Part shown: positions 27,987-58,920 of the stretch, piece after piece | How positions within the stretch are numbered: the first letter of the stretch is position 1 | How the letters are laid out: each line of letters opens with the position of its first letter | IMG/VR virus record: IMGVR_UViG_3300042482_000679 | Source: a virus | Length of the DNA: 64,000 bases | Direction: 5' to 3' (one strand) | Notes under the pieces: generated by a model | Told to the model about the DNA's origin: nothing | Database searches by the model: none | The model's input: the letters and a program-made list of their open reading frames with translations, nothing else | Program-made: the position numbers and the translations under genes

Positions 27987-29792
27987 TTATCTCAATTCTC
28001 TCAAGTCGAATGTTCTAACACCATCAACTGTGATTCTACCATAGAATCTGTTGTTCACCATTTTCTTAGCGTATCTTGTCATAATACCTTTGATTGGTGT
28101 GAAGTTGAATGGGTTATACATTGTTGGTGTTAATTGTAGAGGTACATACGGTGCGTAAATGTAACCTGTGTCAAGTAACGATGTTCCTTTATGTCCTAAC
28201 AACACTTGGTTTGCTGGGAAGTAAGGGTCACGGTAAACTTGATATCTACCAGCCAATGTACCAACTCTCTCAATACCCATATTGTATTGGTCTTGCTCAG
28301 GAGCCGCATTTGATACGTGGAAGTATTCCAAGTCATCAAAGATAGCAGATACCTCAGAAGATACTACAATCCAGTTAGCTCCACCTCTTAAAGTAGATTT
28401 GTGGATTTGAGCTGAGATTTGGTTGATTGCTGTGATAAGAGTTTGGTTCCAGTCCTTTTGTGTGTAAGGAACTGCACTTGAACCTAATCTCTTCCATCCG
28501 TTGTAGTCCCAACGTAAGTTCCAAGCCGCACCTTTTCTAAGGTCTCTTAAGATTTCACGGTCGATTTCAGCCGCAACTTGCTCAGACAATAAAGCTGTTA
28601 ATTCAGCTTCAGCGTCGATGTTGTGGAATGCCGCTACGTCTTGAGCCATTTCAGGTGACCATTGTGCTCTTAATTTTCTTTCTGTAACCGATACAGTCAC
28701 TGACTGAAGGTCGAAAGAAACTTCACCGATTCTATCTTCAAATTCAAGATTCTTGTAGATTCTATAAGTTGTAGAGAATGCTTGTGAAGCTGCTGACAAT
28801 GAAGAGTAGAATGTTGAACCTGTGTAACCATCGATTGAGTTAGCATCTCCACAAGAGATACAAACAGGAACCTGAAGGTCAACTTCCAAGTAGATTTTAC
28901 CTTCTGCGTCACATACGTTGTAATATGTACCACCGTCAGTTCTAGAGTTAGGGAACTCAAGAGTTACGTCTGAACCGTACTCAACAATACCTTTACCATA
29001 TCTTTGAGTAACAACTCTGAATAAGTAGTTATTGTTTACGTTAGCAGCTGTTGTGTAGTTACCAGCCTTACCTCTAATAGTCAAGTCAGATAAGAATTCT
29101 TCAGTATCCATTGGTTGACCGTTAGGTCCGATTAATTGACCAGCACCTGCTGAAGCAAATCCTGTCATAACCAAAAGAACTTTTCTGTAGTTATCTAAAC
29201 CATAACCTGAAGCAACTAACTCATCACCAACCCATACTACAGTAGAGTTACCAGCTGTGATTGACGAGAAGCTACCTTTTGAGTAGTCGTAAAGACCTGG
29301 AGGGTCAAGAGCTGGTTCGTTACCTTCGTAGAATCTATCGTAAAGGTCTTTAGTTGCGTTGTAATCATAACCACTATTTGGTTGTTGGTTAGCAGCCGCG
29401 TTAGGTGAACCATAAGGTGCCCAGTGTTCACCAAATGTTGATGTTTCAGTTTCGTAAGACTGAATGTTAGGTACGAAGTAGAACAATTTACCGATAGGAA
29501 GGTTCATAGCTTGTACTGAAACGATGTCGTTAGCCAAAAGTTTAGAGAAAACTCTTCTTACGATTGGGAAAACAACTGTTTCAAATGAACCTGAGTCAGC
29601 AGTTGATGCAGCTTCGTTAATGAGATATGATGCTTGGTTTTCATATAACTGAGCAACGTTCTCTTTTAGGTGGCCTTTAAGACCTTCAAGGAACCCTAAT
29701 TTGTCCCATTTGTTGATTGTATCTTCTTTGATAACTTTAAGGTGCTTAAGACCAATGTTACCAACAAGACCTGATTCTAATAATGCTCCCAT
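27987..29792 (-). CDS. Major capsid protein (T4 gp23-like)
   Basis: PIVRRVF..LLANDIVSVQAMNLPIG, RKLRAQWSPEMAQD, IDAEAELTALLSEQVAAEIDREI, YAPYVPL, GIMTRY. Confidence 0.97.
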   Translation of the reverse strand: MGALLESGLVGNIGLKHLKVIKEDTINKWDKLGFLEGLKGHLKENVAQLYENQASYLINEAASTADSGSFETVVFPIVRRVFSKLLANDIVSVQAMNLPIGKLFYFVPNIQSYETETSTFGEHWAPYGSPNAAANQQPNSGYDYNATKDLYDRFYEGNEPALDPPGLYDYSKGSFSSITAGNSTVVWVGDELVASGYGLDNYRKVLLVMTGFASAGAGQLIGPNGQPMDTEEFLSDLTIRGKAGNYTTAANVNNNYLFRVVTQRYGKGIVEYGSDVTLEFPNSRTDGGTYYNVCDAEGKIYLEVDLQVPVCISCGDANSIDGYTGSTFYSSLSAASQAFSTTYRIYKNLEFEDRIGEVSFDLQSVTVSVTERKLRAQWSPEMAQDVAAFHNIDAEAELTALLSEQVAAEIDREILRDLRKGAAWNLRWDYNGWKRLGSSAVPYTQKDWNQTLITAINQISAQIHKSTLRGGANWIVVSSEVSAIFDDLEYFHVSNAAPEQDQYNMGIERVGTLAGRYQVYRDPYFPANQVLLGHKGTSLLDTGYIYAPYVPLQLTPTMYNPFNFTPIKGIMTRYAKKMVNNRFYGRITVDGVRTFDLRELR

Positions 29793-33845: not shown

Positions 33846-35708
33846 TTACGAATTCAGCAACTTATCAAGTTCTTCACCCATTTTTCCTAAACTTTGTTGT
33901 CCAACACCTAAATCTAAAAATTTGTTACCATACATATCACTCTCTAAAAGGATATTCATATCTCTATCCATTTTGGATTCTGGCGCTAACTCTGGCGCGC
34001 CAGCTTCAGGTGCCGGTGGTGGAGGAACCTCTCCACCCGCTTCTGGCGCGGTCTCAAAACCACCGCCTCCACCTGCGAATATATCTTCACCTGGAGGTGG
34101 CGTTGTAGTCTCGCCTGCGGGTTCTTGACCTGTTGCTGGTAGATTACCTTGTTTGTTACCATAAAGTTTATCAATTGTATCAAAGATACCTGTTTTAGAA
34201 ATAACTGTTGGTGTATTTTTAAGCTCTTCACCCACAGCCTTTTCAAGTCTTTGTTGTAGTAGGTCAACTCTAATTTCTTCATCAGACCATTGGAATATAT
34301 GTTTTTTGGCCCAAGTTGATGAGGTTGGTTGAATACCATTTCCTGGGTCAGTAACCATATCTTTATACAATAACATTTTTTCTTTCCAAATGTCAATCTT
34401 AAGAAGGTCTGCTTGTGTTGATGGGTTTGTTAATCCCAATTCAAAATTAGATATCTCTTCTTCAAAACCTAAAAGGAACAAGTGAATAATTGCAATTTTA
34501 TTCATTTCTTGAACCATAGATTTTTGAATTCTATTAATGGTTCTTGCAAATCTGATATCCATCAGTGCCAAGCTTTTACCATCACCTACGGTTTCTTCAA
34601 ATCCTAAAAATGCTTTTGGTATACGAAGTGCTGTAACAAGTTTCTTTTGAATATATTCAATATCTGCAATTTCAGATAAGTTCTGTGCACCAGGTAATGT
34701 GTCAATTGGACTTGGCGCTGCAGGGTCTCTTACAGGAATAAAATAATCTTGGTCAACCGCCATTTGGTTAAATCTCATATCTACGTTACCTGTTTTAGAA
34801 TCAACAATTTGTTCTCTTTTAAACTTGTTGGCAACACGTTGTACGTAAGCCTCAACATCATCGTCGTTCATATTTCCGACATATACTTTGAAGACCCTAC
34901 GTTCAGGGGCTCTTGAAGTACGGTATATCAACATCGCGTCCTCCGATAATAGAAGTTGTTTCCAAATTCTACGGGACTTTTCCAACATAGATGTACCATA
35001 CGGCAATTTACGGTCATCACCCAATAATCTAAAGTGAGCAATTTCCCAAGGTTGGAATTCCATATTCTTTTCTTTCCAATAGAATTTCAATCCTTTATTT
35101 TTAGTGTAATCGTTACCTATGTTTGGAGATACTGAACCATCCATAAGTCCACTTTCAACCCTTTCAACTTCAATGTTTGGTAACTGAACACAACCAACAA
35201 CACCCTTTTCAGGGTCCAATCTTAGATAAACAAAATTGTCACCATACTTACAAGTGTTTCTAGTCCACATAGGTAAGTTAGTGTTAATATCTAAGTTATT
35301 ATTGAATAAATCCGCTAATACAGATTTAATCCTTTTTGATTCTGAATAAATCTGTAATACAAAACCATCTTCATTAGGTGTTGTAGATTCTTCAGCGTAA
35401 ATGTCTAAGGCTGCAGAAATTTCTGGAGTATACTCCATAGACTCATAGTCATAATAAGATGATAATCTATTTGGTTGGTAGTATACTGCTTGAGTGTATA
35501 AATTATTCTCTACCTTAGCAAATTGTCCTGCCAAGTAAGCGGTTTGTCTTGCTTGGAGTTTTTCCTTTTCATATTCGGCTTTATCGGTAGTTCTTAAAAG
35601 TTCTTTTTTATCAAACTTAAATACAGGAAAATCCTGATTCATTAACGCGTCAGGACCTAAGGCTCTACCTAATCTTTGCCAAACTGTAAATTGCTTATTT
35701 TCTGCCAT
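33846..35708 (-). CDS. Portal protein (T4 gp20-like)
   Basis: PEISAALDIYAEE, PYGTSMLE, EDAMLIYRTSRAPERRVF, DYFIPVR, LPGAQNL. Confidence 0.96.
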   Translation of the reverse strand: MAENKQFTVWQRLGRALGPDALMNQDFPVFKFDKKELLRTTDKAEYEKEKLQARQTAYLAGQFAKVENNLYTQAVYYQPNRLSSYYDYESMEYTPEISAALDIYAEESTTPNEDGFVLQIYSESKRIKSVLADLFNNNLDINTNLPMWTRNTCKYGDNFVYLRLDPEKGVVGCVQLPNIEVERVESGLMDGSVSPNIGNDYTKNKGLKFYWKEKNMEFQPWEIAHFRLLGDDRKLPYGTSMLEKSRRIWKQLLLSEDAMLIYRTSRAPERRVFKVYVGNMNDDDVEAYVQRVANKFKREQIVDSKTGNVDMRFNQMAVDQDYFIPVRDPAAPSPIDTLPGAQNLSEIADIEYIQKKLVTALRIPKAFLGFEETVGDGKSLALMDIRFARTINRIQKSMVQEMNKIAIIHLFLLGFEEEISNFELGLTNPSTQADLLKIDIWKEKMLLYKDMVTDPGNGIQPTSSTWAKKHIFQWSDEEIRVDLLQQRLEKAVGEELKNTPTVISKTGIFDTIDKLYGNKQGNLPATGQEPAGETTTPPPGEDIFAGGGGGFETAPEAGGEVPPPPAPEAGAPELAPESKMDRDMNILLESDMYGNKFLDLGVGQQSLGKMGEELDKLLNS

Positions 35709-35746: not shown

Positions 35747-37513
35747 CTATCGAGAACCAAACAGCCATTTATATTTCTCATAATCATTTTTAGAGGGTTC
35801 ATAATTCCTACTATGTTGTTGTTGATTCGGAAATTGTGGTATTGACGGATTAAAATATTGTGAACTATCTTTATGTTCATTTACAGTTGTGGACCAAGAA
35901 TCAATCATTGCTTTAGTGTGATTAACCACCTTAGTCAATGAAGGGAACGCCGCTTCAGCAGCATACAACGCCATTGAAATTGACATAATACAATCATCGT
36001 GATGTCCTCTTTGGTGGTCAGGTCTACCATTTATGTATACAAATGTTCCCATTTCACCTAATAATCTACTTGACCTGACTTTAAAGTCGTGTCTAATTGC
36101 CTCCTCAAATGATGCAATGATTTGAACTCTTTTTGAATTAAAATTAATACCAGGTATTTTTTCATTTTGTTTAGGGTCATATTTCCATTTGTTGGTTAAG
36201 TCAACACCATCATAATAGAAATTTTTATACCCTAATTCTTGTAATCTTCTTGATGTCGCAACACCCATACCCCCCGTTAAGTCAACAATACATAAAGCAT
36301 TATACATTGTTCCCCACTTGTACGCAATCTCTGCTAATACATCGGGTGGTATTTTACCAACAAATTCTAAAACCTGTTCTCTTGAGTCAAAATCAATGAT
36401 TTCAATACACGAGAAGTCTTCTGAATCTCCCCTTGATACATCAACACCCATCACATATTTGTGATTATTTTCAGGTTCTTTCCATATCCAAAGTTGGTTA
36501 CCCATTAATTTGGCTGTTGGTTCTTTTACATCATTCTCAGAAATTTTTTGGGTTAATAAAGAATCAAATACGTTATCACCTGAACCCAAGAAATTACATT
36601 CCAATTCCTGAGCAACTTTTCGTTTGTCGTACTTGAGTTTTTTAACCATACTCTCAAACCAACTTGAACAAGGTTTATATCCTTGTTCCATATATGTTTG
36701 AATTAGTTCAATATCTCTGTCGTATGGATTTTCATCGGGTAATTGTCTTACAACGTCTTTGGGGTATTCTTCCTTATTTAACAAATAATGAACAATATCC
36801 TCACATTTAACCATATACAAATCTTTGGTATAACGAGGGTCACGGAACCAATACATTGGCGTGATTTTGAAGTCGTTCATACCTCTTTGTGCTTGGTCGT
36901 AAATTTCGTAGTAAATCGGGTCGTATCCGTTAGGTGTTGATATTACAACAACTTTACCACCCGTAGATAGTGAGGCCATACAAGCCGCCCAGAAATCACT
37001 GTCAGCTTCAATAAACGCCGCCTCGTCAAATATTAATATCGTGGGGGTATAACCACGTAAGGCATCTTTAGATGTGGCAACCGCCTTAACTTCACATCCA
37101 TTAGTTAATTTAAAGTGTCTGGCAGAGTTTTTTTCACCTGAGAACCCAATACCAACCCAGTTCGGCCATTGTTCCGTAAAAGCTCTAATTTTATTAGCAA
37201 ATTCTACAGATGTTTCTAATTTATTGGCAATAATAAGAATCTTTTCAGGTTTTTCTTTTCGAGCAAACGCTAATCGTTTACTTGCCCAACCTGCAGTAAC
37301 CGTAGATACACCCGCCTGACGATACTTCAATGCAATGTTTTCATTATACATTTCGTAATCGTTAACAAGTGTTACTTGGTCTTTAAATAATTCTAAGGGA
37401 ACATACTTTGATACTGTGTTATCGTATGTTTGTAGATATGTTTTAAGAGCATAAGGAGTGCTTTTCATACACTTCTTATACTCTATTAAAACTTGTTCTT
37501 TTGTTAAACTCAT
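35747..37513 (-). CDS. Terminase large subunit (T4 gp17-like)
   Basis: KYRQAGVST Walker A, IFDEAAF Walker B, ISTPNG, nuclease GVDVSRG and HDDCIM. Confidence 0.96.
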   Translation of the reverse strand: MSLTKEQVLIEYKKCMKSTPYALKTYLQTYDNTVSKYVPLELFKDQVTLVNDYEMYNENIALKYRQAGVSTVTAGWASKRLAFARKEKPEKILIIANKLETSVEFANKIRAFTEQWPNWVGIGFSGEKNSARHFKLTNGCEVKAVATSKDALRGYTPTILIFDEAAFIEADSDFWAACMASLSTGGKVVVISTPNGYDPIYYEIYDQAQRGMNDFKITPMYWFRDPRYTKDLYMVKCEDIVHYLLNKEEYPKDVVRQLPDENPYDRDIELIQTYMEQGYKPCSSWFESMVKKLKYDKRKVAQELECNFLGSGDNVFDSLLTQKISENDVKEPTAKLMGNQLWIWKEPENNHKYVMGVDVSRGDSEDFSCIEIIDFDSREQVLEFVGKIPPDVLAEIAYKWGTMYNALCIVDLTGGMGVATSRRLQELGYKNFYYDGVDLTNKWKYDPKQNEKIPGINFNSKRVQIIASFEEAIRHDFKVRSSRLLGEMGTFVYINGRPDHQRGHHDDCIMSISMALYAAEAAFPSLTKVVNHTKAMIDSWSTTVNEHKDSSQYFNPSIPQFPNQQQHSRNYEPSKNDYEKYKWLFGSR

Positions 37514-42937: not shown

Positions 42938-43690
42938 TTAGTCGATATTTTTTACTTCAACGGAAAGTTCTTTATCCATTTGATTGTTGATAGTATCATA
43001 CAATTTTTCAATAAGACCTGACCTTCTTAGATATTTGAAAACCAAATTCTCATACGAGTATTCACCTTCTTTCTCCAAACCTGAAGTTCTATATTCTTTC
43101 AATTTATCCTTAAGAGCCAAAATTTTAGATTCAGTTTTTTCAACACCATCCTTTTTAATTTGGAGAATCAAATTTTGAAGTTTCTGTTTCCAAGAAAGAA
43201 TTTTTGTTTCCAATAAATCTCTATCTATTTTTGAATTTTCTCTTTCGGGAACATTTAACCATTTATCATCTGAAATTGAATAAACACCTGAAGAATAATG
43301 AGCTTCTTTGGCATCTTGGGCGTACAACTCAACCTCGTAACCAAAAATTACGATGTCGTGTTTTTCATTAAAAAGTTGTTTTTTAAGGTTAAACAATTCT
43401 TTGTGTAAATCTTCTTGTTTTTTGAATTGTGAGAAATCAATTACAACGTGTAAATCAAAGTCTGAAAATTTTGACCAGTTATAATTTGCCAACGAACCTG
43501 TTAATATAATATCTTCAACTTTAATATCATCACCAAGACTATCGATAAAAGCATCCGCAATTTTTAATAAAGCCCTTTTTACTTTTGACTTCATTTTTGC
43601 ATCTTTAGCTTCCTCAGGATTTTCCCAAACTTTAGGGTTTAAGGTTTCTCTAAGTGAAAAACTATCAATAATGTCGTTAACTTTCTCCAT
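42938..43690 (-). CDS. Pol-beta-superfamily nucleotidyltransferase
   Basis: LTGSLANYNWSKFSDFDLHVV (GS...DxD) plus third acidic residue in VELY. Confidence 0.8.
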   Translation of the reverse strand: MEKVNDIIDSFSLRETLNPKVWENPEEAKDAKMKSKVKRALLKIADAFIDSLGDDIKVEDIILTGSLANYNWSKFSDFDLHVVIDFSQFKKQEDLHKELFNLKKQLFNEKHDIVIFGYEVELYAQDAKEAHYSSGVYSISDDKWLNVPERENSKIDRDLLETKILSWKQKLQNLILQIKKDGVEKTESKILALKDKLKEYRTSGLEKEGEYSYENLVFKYLRRSGLIEKLYDTINNQMDKELSVEVKNID

Positions 43691-43707
43691 TATTAATAAA
43701 TAGATAG

Positions 43708-43953
43708 TTATTCTACTTTCTTATACTTGAATTTTTTTGATATCTCAGAATTGAAGAATTTACCCTGTGATTCGGACATTCTGAATTTTGTGTATGTTGC
43801 GTGTGGTACATCTTCATATTCGTATCTCACGCCATTTTTGAACTCTGCAATCATTTTTTTGGTTGCAGTATCATATTCTGTTCTTGTAATATTACTTGAC
43901 TCAATCTCGTTGAGTATTTTTGTTCCGTCTATAATTTCTCTTTTAATTGCCAT
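43708..43953 (-). CDS. KTSC-domain protein
   Basis: ESSNI....YD......EFKNG..YEY.DVP...Y..F..SESQGKFFN. Confidence 0.9.
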   Translation of the reverse strand: MAIKREIIDGTKILNEIESSNITRTEYDTATKKMIAEFKNGVRYEYEDVPHATYTKFRMSESQGKFFNSEISKKFKYKKVE

Positions 43954-44288: not shown

Positions 44289-44735
44289 TTATTCATATTT
44301 TCTCAACTCGTTTCGTATCTCAATCGCTGATTCAAAATCTTGTGTTTCGATTGCCGATTTCAATTTAGACTGTAGTTCTTCTACCTTGTCTTTATTCTCT
44401 TCAATTGATTTAATCATATCACGAAGTTTAATTGCCAATAAGAAATCTTCAGTCTCAACCGCTCTTTCGAGTTCTGCTTTTAGTCTTTCAACTTTATTCT
44501 CAGATTGTTTTGGTTTTCTCAATTTAGATTTAAGACCATCTTTGTCACTTCCAAAGTAGGACTTATAAATTACGGTTGATTTCCAAGTACCATCTGGTGA
44601 TGTGTAACTTTCACTGGTCCATTCACCTTCTTCATCTTTACCCGTTTTAAAATCTTTTTTAAAGTCTTTAAAAGGGTCTCCACCGAACATTGATTCAAAC
44701 ATTTCGTTTAGGTCGTCAAAATTAAATCTTCTCAT
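44289..44735 (-). CDS. Tandem UVR (UvrB/UvrC coiled-coil) domain protein
   Basis: LKAELERAVETEDFLLAIKLRDMI and LQSKLKSAIETQDFESAIEIRNEL. Confidence 0.85.
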   Translation of the reverse strand: MRRFNFDDLNEMFESMFGGDPFKDFKKDFKTGKDEEGEWTSESYTSPDGTWKSTVIYKSYFGSDKDGLKSKLRKPKQSENKVERLKAELERAVETEDFLLAIKLRDMIKSIEENKDKVEELQSKLKSAIETQDFESAIEIRNELRKYE

Positions 44736-44859: not shown

Positions 44860-44891
44860 TTTGGATTTGTATGAAAATTGTTATACCTTTG
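44860..44891 (+). promoter_or_regulatory. Bacteroidota-type primary sigma promoter for clpC
   Basis: TTTG (44860) - 20 nt - TACCTTTG (44884). Confidence 0.7.
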
Positions 44892-44908: not shown

Positions 44909-46909
44909 ATGAATGGATTAATGGATGATGACGAAAAACCTCTAAGCCAACGTAAATCTTCTGATTCTTCAACACCTGTGTTGGACAATTTCAGTAGAGA
45001 CCTTATTAAGTTAGCTGAAGATGGTAAACTTGACCCTGTTGTTGGTCGTGAACAAGAGATTCTACGAATTGCACAAGTTTTATCACGTAGGAAGAAAAAC
45101 AACCCAATTATCTTGGGGGAACCTGGTTGTGGTAAAACCGCGATTGTCGAAGGATTGGCAATGTTGATTCACAAAGGTGAGTGTCCAAAGAATTTGTTGG
45201 ATAAACGAATTGTTACTTTGGATTTGACATCTGTGGTTGCAGGAACCAAGTATCGTGGTCAGTTTGAAGAACGACTAAAGGTTATCTTGGAAGAACTTCA
45301 AAACAACCCGAATATCATCGTGTTCATTGATGAGATTCATACGTTGATTGGTTCAGGTAACTCATCAGGTTCTCTTGATGGTTCCAACATCTTTAAACCA
45401 GCTCTTGCTCGTGGAGAACTCCAATGTATCGGAGCGACTACTTTGGATGAGTATCGTAAGTCGTTTGAGAAAGATGGGGCGTTGGAACGTCGTTTTCAAA
45501 AAATTATGGTTGACGCATCAACACCTGCAGAAACTGTAATTATCCTTAACAATGTCAAGGATAAGTATGAGTCTTACCATAAGGTAACCTATTCAGATGA
45601 GGTAATTGAATTGTGTGTAAAGTTGGCTGACCGTTACATCACAGACCGTCAATTCCCTGACAAAGCCTTTGATATTCTGGATGAGGTTGGGGCTCGTGCT
45701 CAAACTGAGGTTAAAATACCTGAAGCAATTGAGGACCTGAAACGTAAAGCGGCTGAAATCAAACAACAAAAACTTGATGTTGTAAAACGTCAAAACTTTG
45801 AACAAGCAGCCGAATTACGTGACAAGGAACGTAAAATCTTGGCAAAACTTGAATCTGAAAAGAAAAAGTTTGAAGAGGAGTCATCAACCAATCGTACCTC
45901 GATTACTGTTGATAATGTTTATGATGTGGTTTCGTCTATGACAAAAATTCCTGTAAACAAAATGACAATCGATGACACTAACGCACTTATCAATATGGAT
46001 AGTGTTATTAAGTCTAAGGTAATCGGTCAGGATGAGGCGGTAGAAAAGATTGTTAAATCAATCCGTAGAAACCGAATTGGTATCAAAGACCCTAATCGTC
46101 CAATTGGTTCATTTATTTTCTTGGGTTCTACTGGTGTTGGTAAAACTCACTTGGCTAAACAAATCGCCAAAGAAATGTTTGGTTCAGAAGATTCGATGAT
46201 TCGTGTGGATATGTCCGAGTATCAAGAAAAACACACGGTATCTCGATTGGTCGGAGCACCTCCAGGATACGTTGGTTATGATGAAGGTGGTATGTTGACA
46301 GAACAAGTCAAAAACAAACCATACTCAGTAATCCTATTTGATGAGGTTGAAAAGGCTCACCGAGACATCTTCTCAATCCTACTTCAAATCCTTGATGATG
46401 GTCACGTTACTGATTCATTGGGTCGTAAGATTAACTTCAAGAATACCTTGATTATTATGACCACAAACTTGGGTGTTAAAAAATTGTCTGATTTTGGTTC
46501 AGGTATTGGTTTCTCATCAAACAAATACTCAAACGAAGAAGCCAAAAAACAGATGTTGATGAAAGAACTCAAAACTTTCTTCTCACCTGAGTTTTTGAAC
46601 CGTGTAGATGACACCATCGTGTTCCAAACTTTATCGAAAGAAAATATCGATAAAATCACCAAACTTGAATTGGATAAATTGGTGACTCGTTTGACTGATA
46701 TGAATTATCAAATTACATATAGTCCTTCGTTGATTGAATTTATCTCAAAAGTTGGGTTTGATGAAATATATGGAGCACGTCCTATCAAAAGGGCTATTCA
46801 AGATAAGGTCGAAGATTTTATCTCTGAGATGGTCCTGACAGGTAAAATCAAGGAAGGTAAAAAAATCAATCTTACCGTCCAAGATGAGACAGTAAAAATT
46901 GGTAAGTAA
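44909..46909 (+). CDS. clpC: ClpC-like AAA+ unfoldase lacking the N-terminal domain
   Basis: Two AAA modules ([14 protein letters not shown]; [17 protein letters not shown]), UVR-type middle domain ([11 protein letters not shown]), GIGF ClpP-docking loop. Confidence 0.9.
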
Positions 46910-47594: not shown

Positions 47595-48425
47595 TTAGAA
47601 AAGTAAAAACTGATGTGAGTTTTTATCTACTCTGTTAGTGTGGTGATAATTGTTACCAATTGATTCGATAATTTTTTTACCAATGTTAATACCGTTCTCG
47701 ACATCTTCAATTACAACATATTCATATTTTGAGTGGTAGTCATAATAACCAATTGATAGGTTAATACAAGAGAAATCAAATTTCTTTCTCAAAGCGTATA
47801 CATCAGTAAATGGGTGTCGTTGGTACTTCATATCGTCTGTCATAGACTCTTTCAATACAACATCACAAGACTTGAAGAAATCAGAGTTTCGGTCAAACAA
47901 TCTTTCACCAAAACAATATTCTGTAACCATCCAGTTCTCAGGTGCATCAAACTGAATCGCATATCCGACATTTTTGAAGAACTCAGGGTCAGCGTGAGAT
48001 GAACCAATACAACCAATTTCCTCACTAACAAAAAACGCAACTTTCAAGTCAGGTAGTTCTTCCAATAAAGTCAAACAGGCAAAAACACCCGCCTTGTCAT
48101 CACCACCAATACCTGTTGGATTTCCGTGGTCGTCATAAGCTTTCAAGGAAAGTTTCATTTCACCTTGAGCATTTTCTTTCATTTCTTCACGAACATTAAT
48201 ATTTGTCAATGAGTGGACCGTGTCCGTATGAGCAACAACACAAGGAAAATATTCAACAACTTCAGAAGTCTGTTTTGTAACATAAACGTTCATATGTTCA
48301 TCAACCTGAAAGTTGTAACCTTTGTTGGTTAGGTAGTTTGTGAGGTATTCTACCATAATACCTTCGTGTCTTGATACTGTGGGAACTGATAGAACTTCCT
48401 TAAGTAGGTTTGTGTTGATTGTCAT
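47595..48425 (-). CDS. M28/M42-like (clan MH) metallopeptidase
   Basis: AHTDTV, GGDDKAG, SEEIGCIGS, QFD, YHSKYE. Confidence 0.88.
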   Translation of the reverse strand: MTINTNLLKEVLSVPTVSRHEGIMVEYLTNYLTNKGYNFQVDEHMNVYVTKQTSEVVEYFPCVVAHTDTVHSLTNINVREEMKENAQGEMKLSLKAYDDHGNPTGIGGDDKAGVFACLTLLEELPDLKVAFFVSEEIGCIGSSHADPEFFKNVGYAIQFDAPENWMVTEYCFGERLFDRNSDFFKSCDVVLKESMTDDMKYQRHPFTDVYALRKKFDFSCINLSIGYYDYHSKYEYVVIEDVENGINIGKKIIESIGNNYHHTNRVDKNSHQFLLF

Positions 48426-48450
48426 TGTATATTATTTGTATACAAATATA

Positions 48451-49818
48451 CTAAAAACCTAACAGATTTTCAAAGTTAAATAACTTTTTATTGTAAATAA
48501 AATCATTAAATTTTTCATAGTCCATTGAAAAATTTCTCTGTTGTAATCCTTTTTGGACTTTAAACTCAACTTTTAAAGTTTCAGGGTTGACACTATCAAC
48601 AACCAATCTTAAATCAGGGTAATTTGGGAACGGAAGACTATACCCCTGTTTAAACTTACTAAAAATTTCTTTGGATATTCTGGACCATTCTTCAATTTGA
48701 TAATCTTCCTCAAACTTCTCAAGTATCTTATCAAGGTTTCGTCCCAAATCAACATTAAAACCGTGACTATCAAAATCTCCTTGGTAGTTCCAATACTCTT
48801 CGTACCAACCTCCATTTATACCACCAACTTCATTAAAAATCCCTTCCAATAATTGTTTTGGTGTTGCAGATTCCATATTAAGTTGGACTGCCCAAGTATA
48901 AAGAACGGCAACTGTTGCGGTTAATTCGTTATCTCTCGAGTCCCAACTAAAACCATTTTTTGAGAAAACATTGTTTAACTCTTTATAAACACTTTCTCTA
49001 ACACCATCTCTTACTTCCTCATTGGCATAATAATTGGCACTATCCATCATATCACCCAAAATACCCGGAACAAGTTTATTGAAGTCTCTATACAGTTTTG
49101 CCAAAACTTCTTCGTTACTAGAGTTATCAATACTGATATCTTCCTCATTCCAATCAGGATGCAACAAAGAAAATATTTTCTTCATTTTTTCTTTGTTTTC
49201 ATCATTATATTGACTTTGATACCAATATCCCTCTGAAAAATTTTCTCGTGTACTCCATTCATCAACAAACTGAAAACCATCATAACCACCATAACTTGAT
49301 GTAACAGCATTAATAATATAAATGTCATCCTCAACCAAGTTAAACATATTTTCATAATCATTCTCGCTTAATTTGAAGACAATTTTTGTTTCACCCTTTC
49401 TACTACCTCTTTCTATTACTTCAGAAACTTTTGGAAATCTATCTAAATAATCAGCATCGACTCTACCATAGATGTATTTTCTTAACGCAATTGGGAAGAA
49501 TGGACCTGGTTTTGTAAGAGTCTCAATAAAGTCTTCCAATGTACCATTTGTTGTGAAATTTTTCAAATTAACCTCTGAAGATTTAGAATCAACAATTTTG
49601 TAGTCACTCTCAGTACGAGTTAATAAATAATACTTCCCACTTTCATTGATAACATAAGCACCTCCAAGGGAAAAAGATTTTTCCAAATCTTCTACAGTTT
49701 CATCGTTCTGACACCAATTTGTGTTATCTTGGAAGTTATTACATAGTGCTTCCATATTGTAATATAGAACGATTGTATCGTTAAAAGATTCAAATATTTT
49801 CTTGTCAAACTTTGGCAT
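48451..49818 (-). CDS. Hypothetical acidic protein
   Basis: 455 aa; late motif 5 nt upstream; N-terminal C..TNWC motif. Confidence 0.7.
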   Translation of the reverse strand: MPKFDKKIFESFNDTIVLYYNMEALCNNFQDNTNWCQNDETVEDLEKSFSLGGAYVINESGKYYLLTRTESDYKIVDSKSSEVNLKNFTTNGTLEDFIETLTKPGPFFPIALRKYIYGRVDADYLDRFPKVSEVIERGSRKGETKIVFKLSENDYENMFNLVEDDIYIINAVTSSYGGYDGFQFVDEWSTRENFSEGYWYQSQYNDENKEKMKKIFSLLHPDWNEEDISIDNSSNEEVLAKLYRDFNKLVPGILGDMMDSANYYANEEVRDGVRESVYKELNNVFSKNGFSWDSRDNELTATVAVLYTWAVQLNMESATPKQLLEGIFNEVGGINGGWYEEYWNYQGDFDSHGFNVDLGRNLDKILEKFEEDYQIEEWSRISKEIFSKFKQGYSLPFPNYPDLRLVVDSVNPETLKVEFKVQKGLQQRNFSMDYEKFNDFIYNKKLFNFENLLGF

Positions 49819-49841
49819 ATACTAATAAATACTTATATTTG
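49811..49841 (+). promoter_or_regulatory. Bacteroidota-type promoter for tmRNA
   Basis: TTTG (49811) - 19 nt - TATATTTG (49834). Confidence 0.75.
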
Positions 49842-49859: not shown

Positions 49860-50255
49860 GGGGGTGCCTTGGTATTGATTGGCGTTGCTGGGCATCGGGG
49901 GCACGTAGTGAGAAGTTTCCTATCACTATAATCTACGGAGGCGATTTTTAACTGGCAATACTTTTGCTAAACTTTCTGCTCTCGGTCTTATGAGAGAAGA
50001 AAAAGTTGCTGTAGCCTAAGAGGTATACACAACACGGGGTCGATGGACATTAACCTAGCAACAGAAGTCCTTTAAGGTGTGGTTTCTATCCAAAAAGGAA
50101 CAAAACGGGTATGGTTCCCCGTAAGAACTGTCACCGTCGCTGAGCGGTGTGAGAACTCAGATATTTCGGAAGGTATGAAAAACCTTGACCTAAACGTGTA
50201 GTCCCTAATGGTTAGGGCGAGCAAGACGGGGGTTCGACTCCCCCCACCTCCACCA
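49860..50255 (+). ncRNA. ssrA: tmRNA
   Basis: Acceptor GGGGGTG/CACCTCC-A-CCA with G3:U wobble; T-arm GGGGG-TTCGACT-CCCCC; tag ORF 49954-50019 after TAACT. Confidence 0.93.
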
Positions 50256-50260
50256 AGTTA

Positions 50261-50300
50261 GATGTGGGAGTTTTAGTTGACTCCCATATCTCTTTTTTTT
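50261..50300 (+). terminator. Intrinsic terminator after tmRNA
   Basis: GATGTGGGAGT...ACTCCCATATC followed by a T-tract. Confidence 0.8.
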
Positions 50301-50858: not shown

Positions 50859-50895
50859 GTTTGACAAATCCATTTTAAATCTTTAACTTTGAACT

Positions 50896-51225
50896 ATGGA
50901 ACTATTAAAAGAATTTTGGACAAAAGTGAAAAGTGGTCTTAGAATCGTTGTTAACTACTTTTTCATTATCCTGGGTATGGTGGGATGCTTTACCATTGGA
51001 TACTATTACAACGCATTACGTGATTTCAACAAGATTGGTAAACCTAAAATTTATAAGGCAATTGACCACACGTTGGCAATCGACGAAAACAATAATGGCA
51101 TCATTATTGAAAATCGTAGAGGTACCTACATTGTATTGGACGCTGAATTGGTGACCAAGTTCTTTGATATCAAAGCACGAAATATGTGGGGACAACACCA
51201 AACACCAAAACCTGTAGAGAAATGA
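50896..51225 (+). CDS. Single-pass membrane protein
   Basis: Hydrophobic segment IVVNYFFIILGMVGCFTIGYYY; promoter TTTG-N20-TAACTTTG at 50860-50891. Confidence 0.7.
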   Translation: MELLKEFWTKVKSGLRIVVNYFFIILGMVGCFTIGYYYNALRDFNKIGKPKIYKAIDHTLAIDENNNGIIIENRRGTYIVLDAELVTKFFDIKARNMWGQHQTPKPVEK

Positions 51226-51870: not shown

Positions 51871-52217
51871 CGAAACTACAAGACGCTATCTTTATATTCT
51901 TTGTTTATTTAATTTCTCAAATATTCGTATTCTACCAACTCCAAGGTCATCTTTGGAACAAATGGATTAAAGACCACCCATTTCTTATGGCACTCTTTGG
52001 ACTACCACTTGGATATTTGGTTATATTAGGGTCTCGTAAGATGGTTGCACTGTGTGACGGTCAAACTTGGCCAAATCGAATTTTAGGTTTTACTCTTGGA
52101 GTAATAGTATTTACTATTATGGCTTGGGTTTACCTTAAAGAACCCTTATCATTAAAAACAGGTGTATTACTTTTTTTATGTTTCTTAATAATTTGCATTC
52201 AATTGTTTTGGAAATAA
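51867..52217 (+). CDS. Four-TM small membrane protein (DMT/SMR-like)
   Basis: Four hydrophobic helices, LKEPLS motif; ATGA overlap at 51867. Confidence 0.7.
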   Translation: MTKLQDAIFIFFVYLISQIFVFYQLQGHLWNKWIKDHPFLMALFGLPLGYLVILGSRKMVALCDGQTWPNRILGFTLGVIVFTIMAWVYLKEPLSLKTGVLLFLCFLIICIQLFWK

Positions 52218-52255
52218 GAAAATCAGTCGTATATTTGTAGAGTTAAAAACAATAT

Positions 52256-53015: not shown

Positions 53016-53088
53016 GCGAGAGTAGCTCAGTTGGTAGAGCACAACCTTGCCAAGGTTGGGGTCGCGAGTTCGAATCTCGTCTCTCGCT
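53016..53088 (+). tRNA. tRNA-Gly(GCC)
   Basis: GCGAGAG/CTCTCGC, CAACC-TTGCCAA-GGTTG. Confidence 0.96.
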
Positions 53089-53132
53089 CAATCTGAATTA
53101 AAACACAGAGTAAACCAAATTTAAAAACCAAA

Positions 53133-58889: not shown

Positions 58890-58920
58890 CAAAGATAATA
58901 CATATTTTGTAAAAATCAAA
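58890..58920 (-). promoter_or_regulatory. Bacteroidota-type promoter for the minus-strand tRNA operon
   Basis: TTTG - 19 nt - TATCTTTG on the minus strand. Confidence 0.75.

Follow-up and report, generated by a model that had tools for sequence, protein, structure and literature searches.

Among the systems that come closest to the one described here, the ssrA tags of E. coli and Caulobacter are two-part degrons that are handled by ClpXP with the help of the adaptor SspB. Other bacteria use long tags: those of Mycoplasma and Mesoplasma are read by Lon, in lineages that have lost ClpXP, and the tags of Chlamydia are long, too. Altogether, bacterial tags span 8 to 35 residues (PMC8012679). In the E. 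coli tmRNA the reading frame of the tag is set by A86, which lies 4 nt 5' of the resume codon (PMC2481249).

Phages carry tmRNA genes as well. The listed examples are the mycobacteriophage Bxz1 group and Bacillus phage G (PMC4131195), and tmRNAs are mentioned for huge phages (PMC7162821). A study that reports tmRNAs in 2.3% of phage genomes, and also marine two-piece tmRNAs, suggests that host proteins are tagged for recycling (PMC9004378). The reason why phages have tmRNA genes is a little-studied question, and the suggestions range from ribosome availability to the recycling of host proteins (PMC9004378, PMC7162821). Moraphages, which are mostly freshwater jumbo phages of Bacteroidota with genomes of 200-307 kb and predicted Flavobacteriia hosts, have a ClpA-like ATPase and a peptidase among their core genes, and the word tmRNA does not occur in the 2025 paper that describes them (PMC12619734). 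Compared by description only, they may be the same lineage as the phage described below, or a sister lineage. Our literature search found no published analysis of the tag family reported here or of its link to a phage ClpC.

We analysed 64,000 nucleotides of the IMG/VR virus record IMGVR_UViG_3300042482_000679 (this whole stretch is called the window in the following). It contains genes of a tailed phage as recognised with PHROG, namely the major head protein (27987-29792), the portal (33846-35708) and the large terminase (35747-37513). Over its first 20 kb the window shares 97% identity with the nearest IMG/VR record, which is 115 kb long (CheckV 38% complete) and ends about 10 kb before the position of the tmRNA. 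Since a relative with direct terminal repeats is complete at 321 kb, the window is, as judged from its genes and relatives, a part of a jumbo phage of the class Caudoviricetes.

ARAGORN calls a sole tmRNA in the window, at 49860-50255 (+). The Rfam model RF00023 matches the same interval with 89 bits against a gathering score of 47 (E 3e-33, model positions 1-374). The gene and its signals are laid out as follows:

49811..49841, + strand: Bacteroidota-type promoter motif TTTG-N19-TAnnTTTG, ending 19 nt 5' of the tmRNA
49860..50255, + strand: one-piece tmRNA (ssrA) gene, 396 nt, with an encoded 3' CCA (ARAGORN and Rfam RF00023)
49860..49866, + strand: acceptor stem, 5' strand; the G3:U70 alanine identity pair is made by G3 (49862) and the U at 50249
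49950, + strand: frame-setting adenosine, A91 of the gene and equivalent of E. coli A86, 4 nt 5' of the resume codon (invariant alignment column)
49954..50016, + strand: tag reading frame, 21 codons, with the resume codon GGC (ARAGORN, Rfam, relatives)
50017..50019, + strand: stop codon TAA of the tag frame (ARAGORN, window sequence)
50245..50255, + strand: 3' strand of the acceptor stem, plus ACCA (window sequence, ends of the relatives' tmRNAs, consensus pairing)
50260..50300, + strand: intrinsic-terminator-like hairpin of 13 pairs with a T run behind it, beginning 5 nt 3' of the tmRNA

The covariance match is full-length, and the gene has the acceptor stem with its G3:U70 pair, the T-arm, the 3' CCA, the adenosine four positions before the resume codon and a stop in frame. 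A blastn search with the tmRNA against 50,697 phage records gave zero matches, i.e. there is no isolate relative among them, and an exact 19-mer from the tmRNA 5' end has no match in IMG/VR.

Relatives were collected by two independent routes. For the first set (clp-first), the query was the gene of the Clp ATPase that lies 3 kb 5' of the tmRNA; it gave 80 IMG/VR loci with 70-87% protein identity; an HMM built from the tmRNAs that ARAGORN had called then found a tmRNA in 63 of these 80 loci, so that 64 tmRNAs are available together with that of the window. For the second set (tag-first), a degenerate pattern of the tag ORF was searched for, which at least 119 stretches match. Among the matches listed, all 80 of 80 loci are members of the same tmRNA family according to the HMM, and the tag frame is open in all of them. 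Note that the pattern itself imposes the invariance of K6, G11 and L12 in the tag-first set, and this invariance was therefore excluded as evidence.

With 31 distinct relatives, RNAalifold reports compensatory changes in 29 of 41 consensus pairs, which belong to the acceptor stem, helix 2 and the T-arm. All 31 distinct family members keep G:U at the G3:U70 position, and the adjacent acceptor pairs covary. The pseudoknot region is covered by the Rfam alignment with low posterior values and many indels, and RNAalifold cannot model pseudoknots. As for the promoter, the window has 12 copies of the motif TTTG-N19-TAnnTTTG where 4.75 are expected, and a count of 12 was reached in none of 100 shuffles; a sigma-70-like site at 49812-49839 overlaps the copy in front of the tmRNA. 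Judged by pairing, promoter and terminator, the phage tmRNA is thus shown to be functional-looking and independently transcribed. We also observed that the tmRNA genes of several relatives have no encoded terminal CCA and end in ACAG, ACTA, ACTT and similar sequences instead.

These data bear on the idea that the gene is a decaying copy of a host tmRNA, in which the original stop was lost by accident and the frame became long. With 89 bits, the Rfam match does score lower than cellular Bacteroidota tmRNAs (105-198 bits), and the alignment with host tmRNAs at the DNA level is confined to the 3' tRNA-like 80 nt of the phage RNA. On the other hand, a decaying gene would hardly show covariation throughout, an invariant G3:U70 pair and frame-setting A, its own promoter and terminator, and a tag frame that is kept in more than 140 contigs. 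We consider this explanation barely credible.

The preliminary description of the window had placed a tag of 21 codons after TAACT, at 49954-50019, and this reading is correct to the base. Both ARAGORN (coding part 95-160 of the gene) and Rfam, whose own resume codon aligns there, set the resume codon to the GGC at 49954-49956, directly after TAACT. In the alignment of the 31 distinct family members, A91 and the resume-codon bases G95 and G96 are invariant, and glycine is the first residue in 26 of 27 distinct tag variants, which speaks against another resume codon with a short canonical tag. Alternative resume codons were nevertheless considered, because ARAGORN gives 8-residue tags for nine relatives and an odd call for another one (L067). 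In these ten relatives the same GGC-started frame is open over the 13 codons that precede the start set by ARAGORN, which gives 21 residues again, and we rejected the alternative starts; a short canonical tag is obtained from none of them.

The window tag, with its 21 residues and its C-terminal V-A-V-A, departs from the canonical ssrA degron of ClpXP (about 8-12 residues, [LMV]-A-A end). That the tag lacks a terminal Ala-Ala, as had been noted, holds for the window. It does not hold as a trait of the family: in both sets together we counted at least 67 distinct tags, and among the matches listed 11 of 67 end in AA. The same description had seen an amphipathic segment in the tag; this finds no support, as the tags do not exceed shuffled versions in their alpha-helical hydrophobic moment. 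The tag is better described as a series of four blocks. Its start is polar (G-N/E-T/V) and leads into a hydrophobic core that is invariant (K-[LM]-x-x-[LIV]-G-L); an acidic patch comes next, and the C-terminus is small and non-polar, mostly V-x-A. Among the matches listed, 59 of 62 tags with 21 residues end in alanine, mostly as V-V-A or T-V-A.

Next, we asked whether the tag is conserved as a peptide. Starting from the aligned resume codon, a frame of 21 or 22 codons is open in all 64 tmRNAs of the clp-first set including the window; taking both sets together, the tag is conserved in more than 140 related phage contigs. In the 27 distinct peptides of the clp-first set and the window, K6, G11 and L12 never vary. 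The other two frames are closed by stops in 25 of 26 and in 26 of 26 unique 21-codon sequences, respectively. Within the same 26 sequences the summed entropy at codon positions 1, 2 and 3 is 16.5, 11.5 and 24.7, so that the third position is the most variable one, and pN/pS is 0.61. The length of the ORF changes by a single whole codon only, in a molecule whose pseudoknot region is rich in indels, and the frame ends with TAA in 56 and with TAG in 8 family members. A conserved RNA structure as the cause of the conservation was ruled out, since RNAalifold finds no consensus helix over the ORF. Because the frame is open in all members, the other frames are closed, third positions are the most variable and there is no helix over the ORF, the tag is under constraint at the level of the peptide; our comparison of the predicted tags shows that selection acts on the tag as a peptide.

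It could be argued that only ribosome rescue is selected, and that the tag is no degron at all or is even shaped to escape the proteases of the host. In that case it would be conserved because of the needs of translation, of termination or of the folding of the mRNA-like domain, or the tag would be a harmless or stabilising tail. In E. coli, viability needs rescue and not proteolysis (PMC8012679); the tmRNA of our phage sits in an island of tRNA and RNA-repair genes, which fits an upkeep of translation, and the pN/pS value is only moderately low. However, drift in length like that of the pseudoknot region is what one would expect of a neutral tail, and the length of the tag is fixed to the codon. 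Furthermore, K6, G11, L12 and the terminal alanine are invariant or nearly so while the codons vary, and the ORF has no conserved RNA helix. We think that this explanation is unlikely.

The quality of the automatic calls deserves a comment. In the 63 clp-first loci in which the family HMM finds a tmRNA, ARAGORN calls only 18, and in 10 of these 18 the resume codon is mis-set. For the family members with a reported tmRNA, it is mis-set in about a third, and many other members are missed. Surveys of phage tags that are based on ARAGORN will miss or mis-read such tags, which leads to under-reporting.

The type of promoter and the nearest cellular homologues of the ClpC both point to Bacteroidota as the likely host phylum: the closest cellular homologues of the phage Clp ATPase come almost all from Bacteroidota, many of them from Flavobacteriales, with 54-59% identity. 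The tags of possible hosts were sampled from the tmRNAs of 144 genomes across Bacteroidota, and could be read in 94. All but one of these 94 tags are 8-10 residues long, the exception having 15, and an AA end is seen in 92. In the Flavobacteriales sample, 46 of 48 tags have 9 residues and are of the GENNYALAA type; a lone 20-residue call apparently has a mis-set start. No likely host tag has more than about half the length of the phage tag, and a host tag of equal length, which would have contradicted the preliminary description, was not found in this sample. None of the approximately 136 sampled Bacteroidota tags, including 48 from Flavobacteriales, resembles the phage tag, and on this comparison of predicted tags it is shown to be private to the phage clade and unlike the sampled host tags.

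Still, the tag might be a degron that is read by proteases of the host, such as ClpXP, a host ClpC-ClpP, Lon, FtsH or a periplasmic protease of the Tsp/Prc type, and the tmRNA would then simply add rescue capacity. The extra length would in this case be a recognition element for an adaptor or for Lon, as in the bacteria with long tags, and the length of 21 residues is within the range of 8-35 known from bacteria (PMC8012679). The C-terminus of the tag resembles a generic non-polar degron and could be read by host proteases: it is small and non-polar, with alanine at the end of 59 of the 62 21-residue variants and AA at the end of 11 of 67 among the matches listed. Moreover, the phage appears to rely on the SmpB of the host (see below) and is hence already tied into host trans-translation, and phage Bxz1, with its long and odd tag, has no Clp of its own. 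Against this stand the roughly 136 Bacteroidota tags, none of which is alike, and there is no obvious reason to swap the 9-residue tag of the host for another one of 21 residues that is kept throughout a deep clade. On balance, we find a host reader rather doubtful.

What else could read the tag is suggested by the genes upstream of the tmRNA. The conserved order is nucleotidyltransferase, 81-aa ORF, sometimes a two-UVR protein, clp (+), M20/M42 peptidase (-), a variable protein (-) and tmRNA (+), and in the window it is made up of the following genes:

42938..43953, - strand: NTP_transf_2 nucleotidyltransferase and 81-aa ORF, the upstream edge of the block (75 of 80 and 77 of 80 loci)
44289..44735, - strand: protein of 148 aa that bears two UVR motifs, transcribed divergently from clp (seen in 44 of 80 loci)
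44909..46909, + strand: predicted ClpC-type double AAA+ unfoldase, 666 aa, without N-domain (domains and GIGF loop)
47595..48425, - strand: M20/M42-type peptidase between clp and tmRNA (same place in 73 of 80 loci)
48451..49818, - strand: conserved 455-aa protein, divergent from the tmRNA (191-615 aa in relatives)

The nucleotidyltransferase itself is small and occupies 42938-43690 (-); it is the gene found in 75 of 80 loci. The Clp ATPase has two AAA+ modules, with the domains AAA, AAA_lid_9, AAA_2 and ClpB_D2-small, and a UVR-like middle domain. Residues 181-832 of a Flavobacterium homologue with 848 aa align with it at 57% identity, and GIGF at its ClpP-docking loop aligns with GVGF of that protein. 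A Clp_N domain is present in the Flavobacterium homologue, but no match to it was found in the phage protein. Since the alignment covers only residues 181-832 of a homologue that bears Clp_N, the phage protein is, by its domain composition, a ClpC without N-domain. The 148-aa UVR protein would be a candidate partner of its middle domain.

The 455-aa protein is less easy to place. Its relatives have about 23% mean identity. For its AlphaFold model (pLDDT 86.5), Foldseek gave no match against the PDB at E <= 0.001 and the scores in the ESM Atlas were all below 0.8; used as a query in the IMG/VR protein search, the protein gave no match. We considered it as an analogue of SmpB and rejected this, as the wide structural search peaked at Z 5.3 with a GNAT-like N-terminal piece, which is within noise.

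The linkage between clp and tmRNA was examined from both sides. In the clp-first set, a tmRNA is present in 54 of 54 loci with at least 4.5 kb of sequence downstream of clp, and the 17 loci without a tmRNA match all end at most 3.6 kb past clp. In the tag-first set, among the matches listed, clp is found upstream and on the same strand in 30 of 30 loci with at least 5 kb of upstream sequence, at a distance of 2.0-5.7 kb. Within the clade, the tmRNA thus always lies 2-7 kb downstream of clp with the peptidase in between, although all these loci come from one clade and the synteny may reflect shared descent. The two genes do not form one operon; they have separate promoters, and two genes on the opposite strand separate them.

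There are further copies of the Bacteroidota-type promoter motif: those at 44860-44891 and 48443-48474 are located directly 5' of clp and of the peptidase gene, that at 50860-50891 precedes an ORF at 50896, and those at 52207-52237 and 58890-58920 precede the two tRNA arrays. On this basis, the whole island of translation and proteostasis genes would be transcribed by the RNA polymerase of the host. The tmRNA stands first in a region that has ten tRNA genes (ARAGORN) and RNA-repair-type domains. One of these tRNA genes, which follows tRNA-Gly(tcc) in the window (53016-53089), has an anticodon loop that varies among relatives: the anticodon is gcc in the window, acc in L014 (19219-19292) and tta, that of a UAA suppressor, in L024 (18913-18987), and the loops are odd-sized and unreadable in L022 (17035-17111), L023 and L070 (18983-19059). 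As the tag frame of L024 ends with TAA, its suppressor tRNA could read through the tag stop.

A ClpP was found once each in the complete 321-kb relative and in four large fragments, with 191-196 bits; the one of the complete relative scores 196 bits and shows, in translation, the Ser, His and Asp motifs. By synteny, the gene would fall beyond the end of the 64-kb window, and going by its relatives the window's own phage probably has a ClpP as well. SmpB (PF01668), on the other hand, was found neither in the complete 321-kb relative, searched with the Pfam HMM in six frames, nor in the four large fragments. Because the phage lineage has no SmpB, the SmpB of the host would have to serve the tmRNA.

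Combining these observations, we propose the following model. A host-type promoter and a terminator of its own would govern the transcription of the tmRNA, which would be charged with alanine by way of G3:U70, presumably by the alanyl-tRNA synthetase of the host, and delivered by host SmpB to host ribosomes. On stalled ribosomes, alanine and the 21-residue peptide would be appended to the nascent chain. The tag might then act as a degradation signal for the phage's own protease, the reader being the phage ClpP in combination with the ClpP-docking ClpC without N-domain, whose gene lies 3 kb upstream. The degradation products would go to the neighbouring peptidase for trimming, and in this way the phage could clear and recycle truncated chains without the ClpXP of the host. 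The preliminary description had expected a changed protease or adaptor specificity, or else a stabilisation of the rescued proteins. The first of these fits the synteny with the predicted ClpP-docking phage ClpC and the phage ClpP. A tag that is a degron for the phage ClpC-ClpP is the reading that we prefer, and we regard it as a serious possibility that falls a little short of an even chance.

A stronger version of this model is a private, orthogonal circuit, in which SmpB and ribosomes are borrowed from the host and the degron is readable by phage factors only. Here, the K-[LM]-x-x-[LIV]-G-L core would be bound by the UVR-motif adaptor or directly by ClpC, and the V-x-A end would enter the pore of the unfoldase; during infection, truncated chains of both host and phage would thereafter be broken down to amino acids by the phage ClpP and the aminopeptidase encoded nearby. 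Such a strict separation from the host is conceivable, but we lean against it.

Other phages provide counter-evidence to a pairing of tag and phage ClpC: Bxz1 has a long, odd tag without Clp, and LR756502 has ClpC and ClpP without a tmRNA. A general rule that links phage tmRNA to phage Clp was considered and dropped, as four other phages give a mixed picture. The Bxz1 tag has 25 residues and an ALV end, and this phage has neither Clp ATPase nor ClpP. Bacillus phage G has a tag of 13 residues with a QVA end, and its ClpP gene is directly followed by the gene of a ClpX-like ATPase (JN638751.1 187823-189357). In LR756508 the tag apparently has 36 residues, a Clp ATPase is present and ClpP is a weak match (57 bits). 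In LR756502, ClpC and ClpP are present and no full tmRNA was found.

Some additional observations were made in these genomes. In phage G (410560-413871, L279), 54 nt separate a UAA-suppressor tRNA from the tmRNA that follows it. The full tmRNA of LR756508, a genome of 484 kb (L272, 92434-92880), has its tag in the same TAACT-GGC context and is miscalled by ARAGORN. The same genome contains a separate 112-nt match (LR756508.1 414804-414915, 58 bits) to both ends of the tmRNA model, which looks like a molecule that consists of the tRNA-like domain only, similar to the one noted for mycobacteriophage DS6A.

Potentially, the tag could also direct proteins to a fate other than proteolysis, e.g. binding to a phage factor, sequestration or association with the membrane, or it could be a sensor of translational stress in the host. 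The invariant internal K-[LM]-x-x-[LIV]-G-L is more like a binding motif than like a C-terminal degron, and conserved proteins without functional annotation flank the gene. However, the helical hydrophobic moment of the tag is unremarkable, and we know of no precedent for a non-proteolytic fate of a tmRNA tag. To us this seems very improbable.

The question of why phages have tmRNAs thus gains a concrete handle: a tag system that is widespread in freshwater phages and deeply conserved, with invariant residues and a candidate reader encoded by the same phages. Should the tag and the phage ClpC indeed belong together, they would be a natural pair of degron and protease that is independent of that of the host. 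It would then give insight into how viruses take over proteostasis, and could serve as a tool for controlled protein degradation.

How does this system compare with those already known? It shares with the tmRNAs of Flavobacteriales and other Bacteroidota (RF00023) the tRNA-like domain with G3:U70, the A four nucleotides before the resume codon, the glycine resume codon, the Bacteroidota-type promoter and, as predicted for the phage RNA, the dependence on SmpB. It differs from them in its tag, which has 21 residues with another core and another end instead of the 9-residue GENNYALAA type, and in that the phage has no smpB.

With ssrA, SspB and ClpXP it has in common a conserved internal element and a small non-polar C-terminus, a layout that matches a first part for binding the adaptor and a second one for engaging the unfoldase. 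However, the candidate reader in the phage is of the ClpC and not of the ClpX type, and no SspB-like protein was identified. The tags of Mycoplasma, Mesoplasma and Chlamydia are similar in being longer than 20 residues, in having no LAA end and in tracking a change of protease; there, cellular ClpXP was lost, whereas here the virus brings Clp components of its own. Compared with the ClpC-ClpP systems of Firmicutes and Actinobacteria, which use MecA or McsB as adaptors, the phage protein has the same two AAA+ rings, UVR-like middle domain and [IV]GF loop. Unlike them, it has no N-domain, the part that is used by adaptors of the MecA, phospho-arginine and ClpS type, and its choice of substrates must therefore work differently.

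The listed phage tmRNAs, finally (the Bxz1 group, phage G, the huge phages and the marine two-piece molecules), are likewise borne by phages, often lie by tRNA clusters and have non-canonical tags. The family described here is unrelated to them in sequence and has a different tag, with conservation at the level of the peptide across a large clade and synteny with a phage ClpC. In summary, phage tmRNAs with odd tags were already known from Bxz1 and phage G; the tag described here has 21 residues, is conserved across its clade and is fixed in synteny with a phage ClpC.
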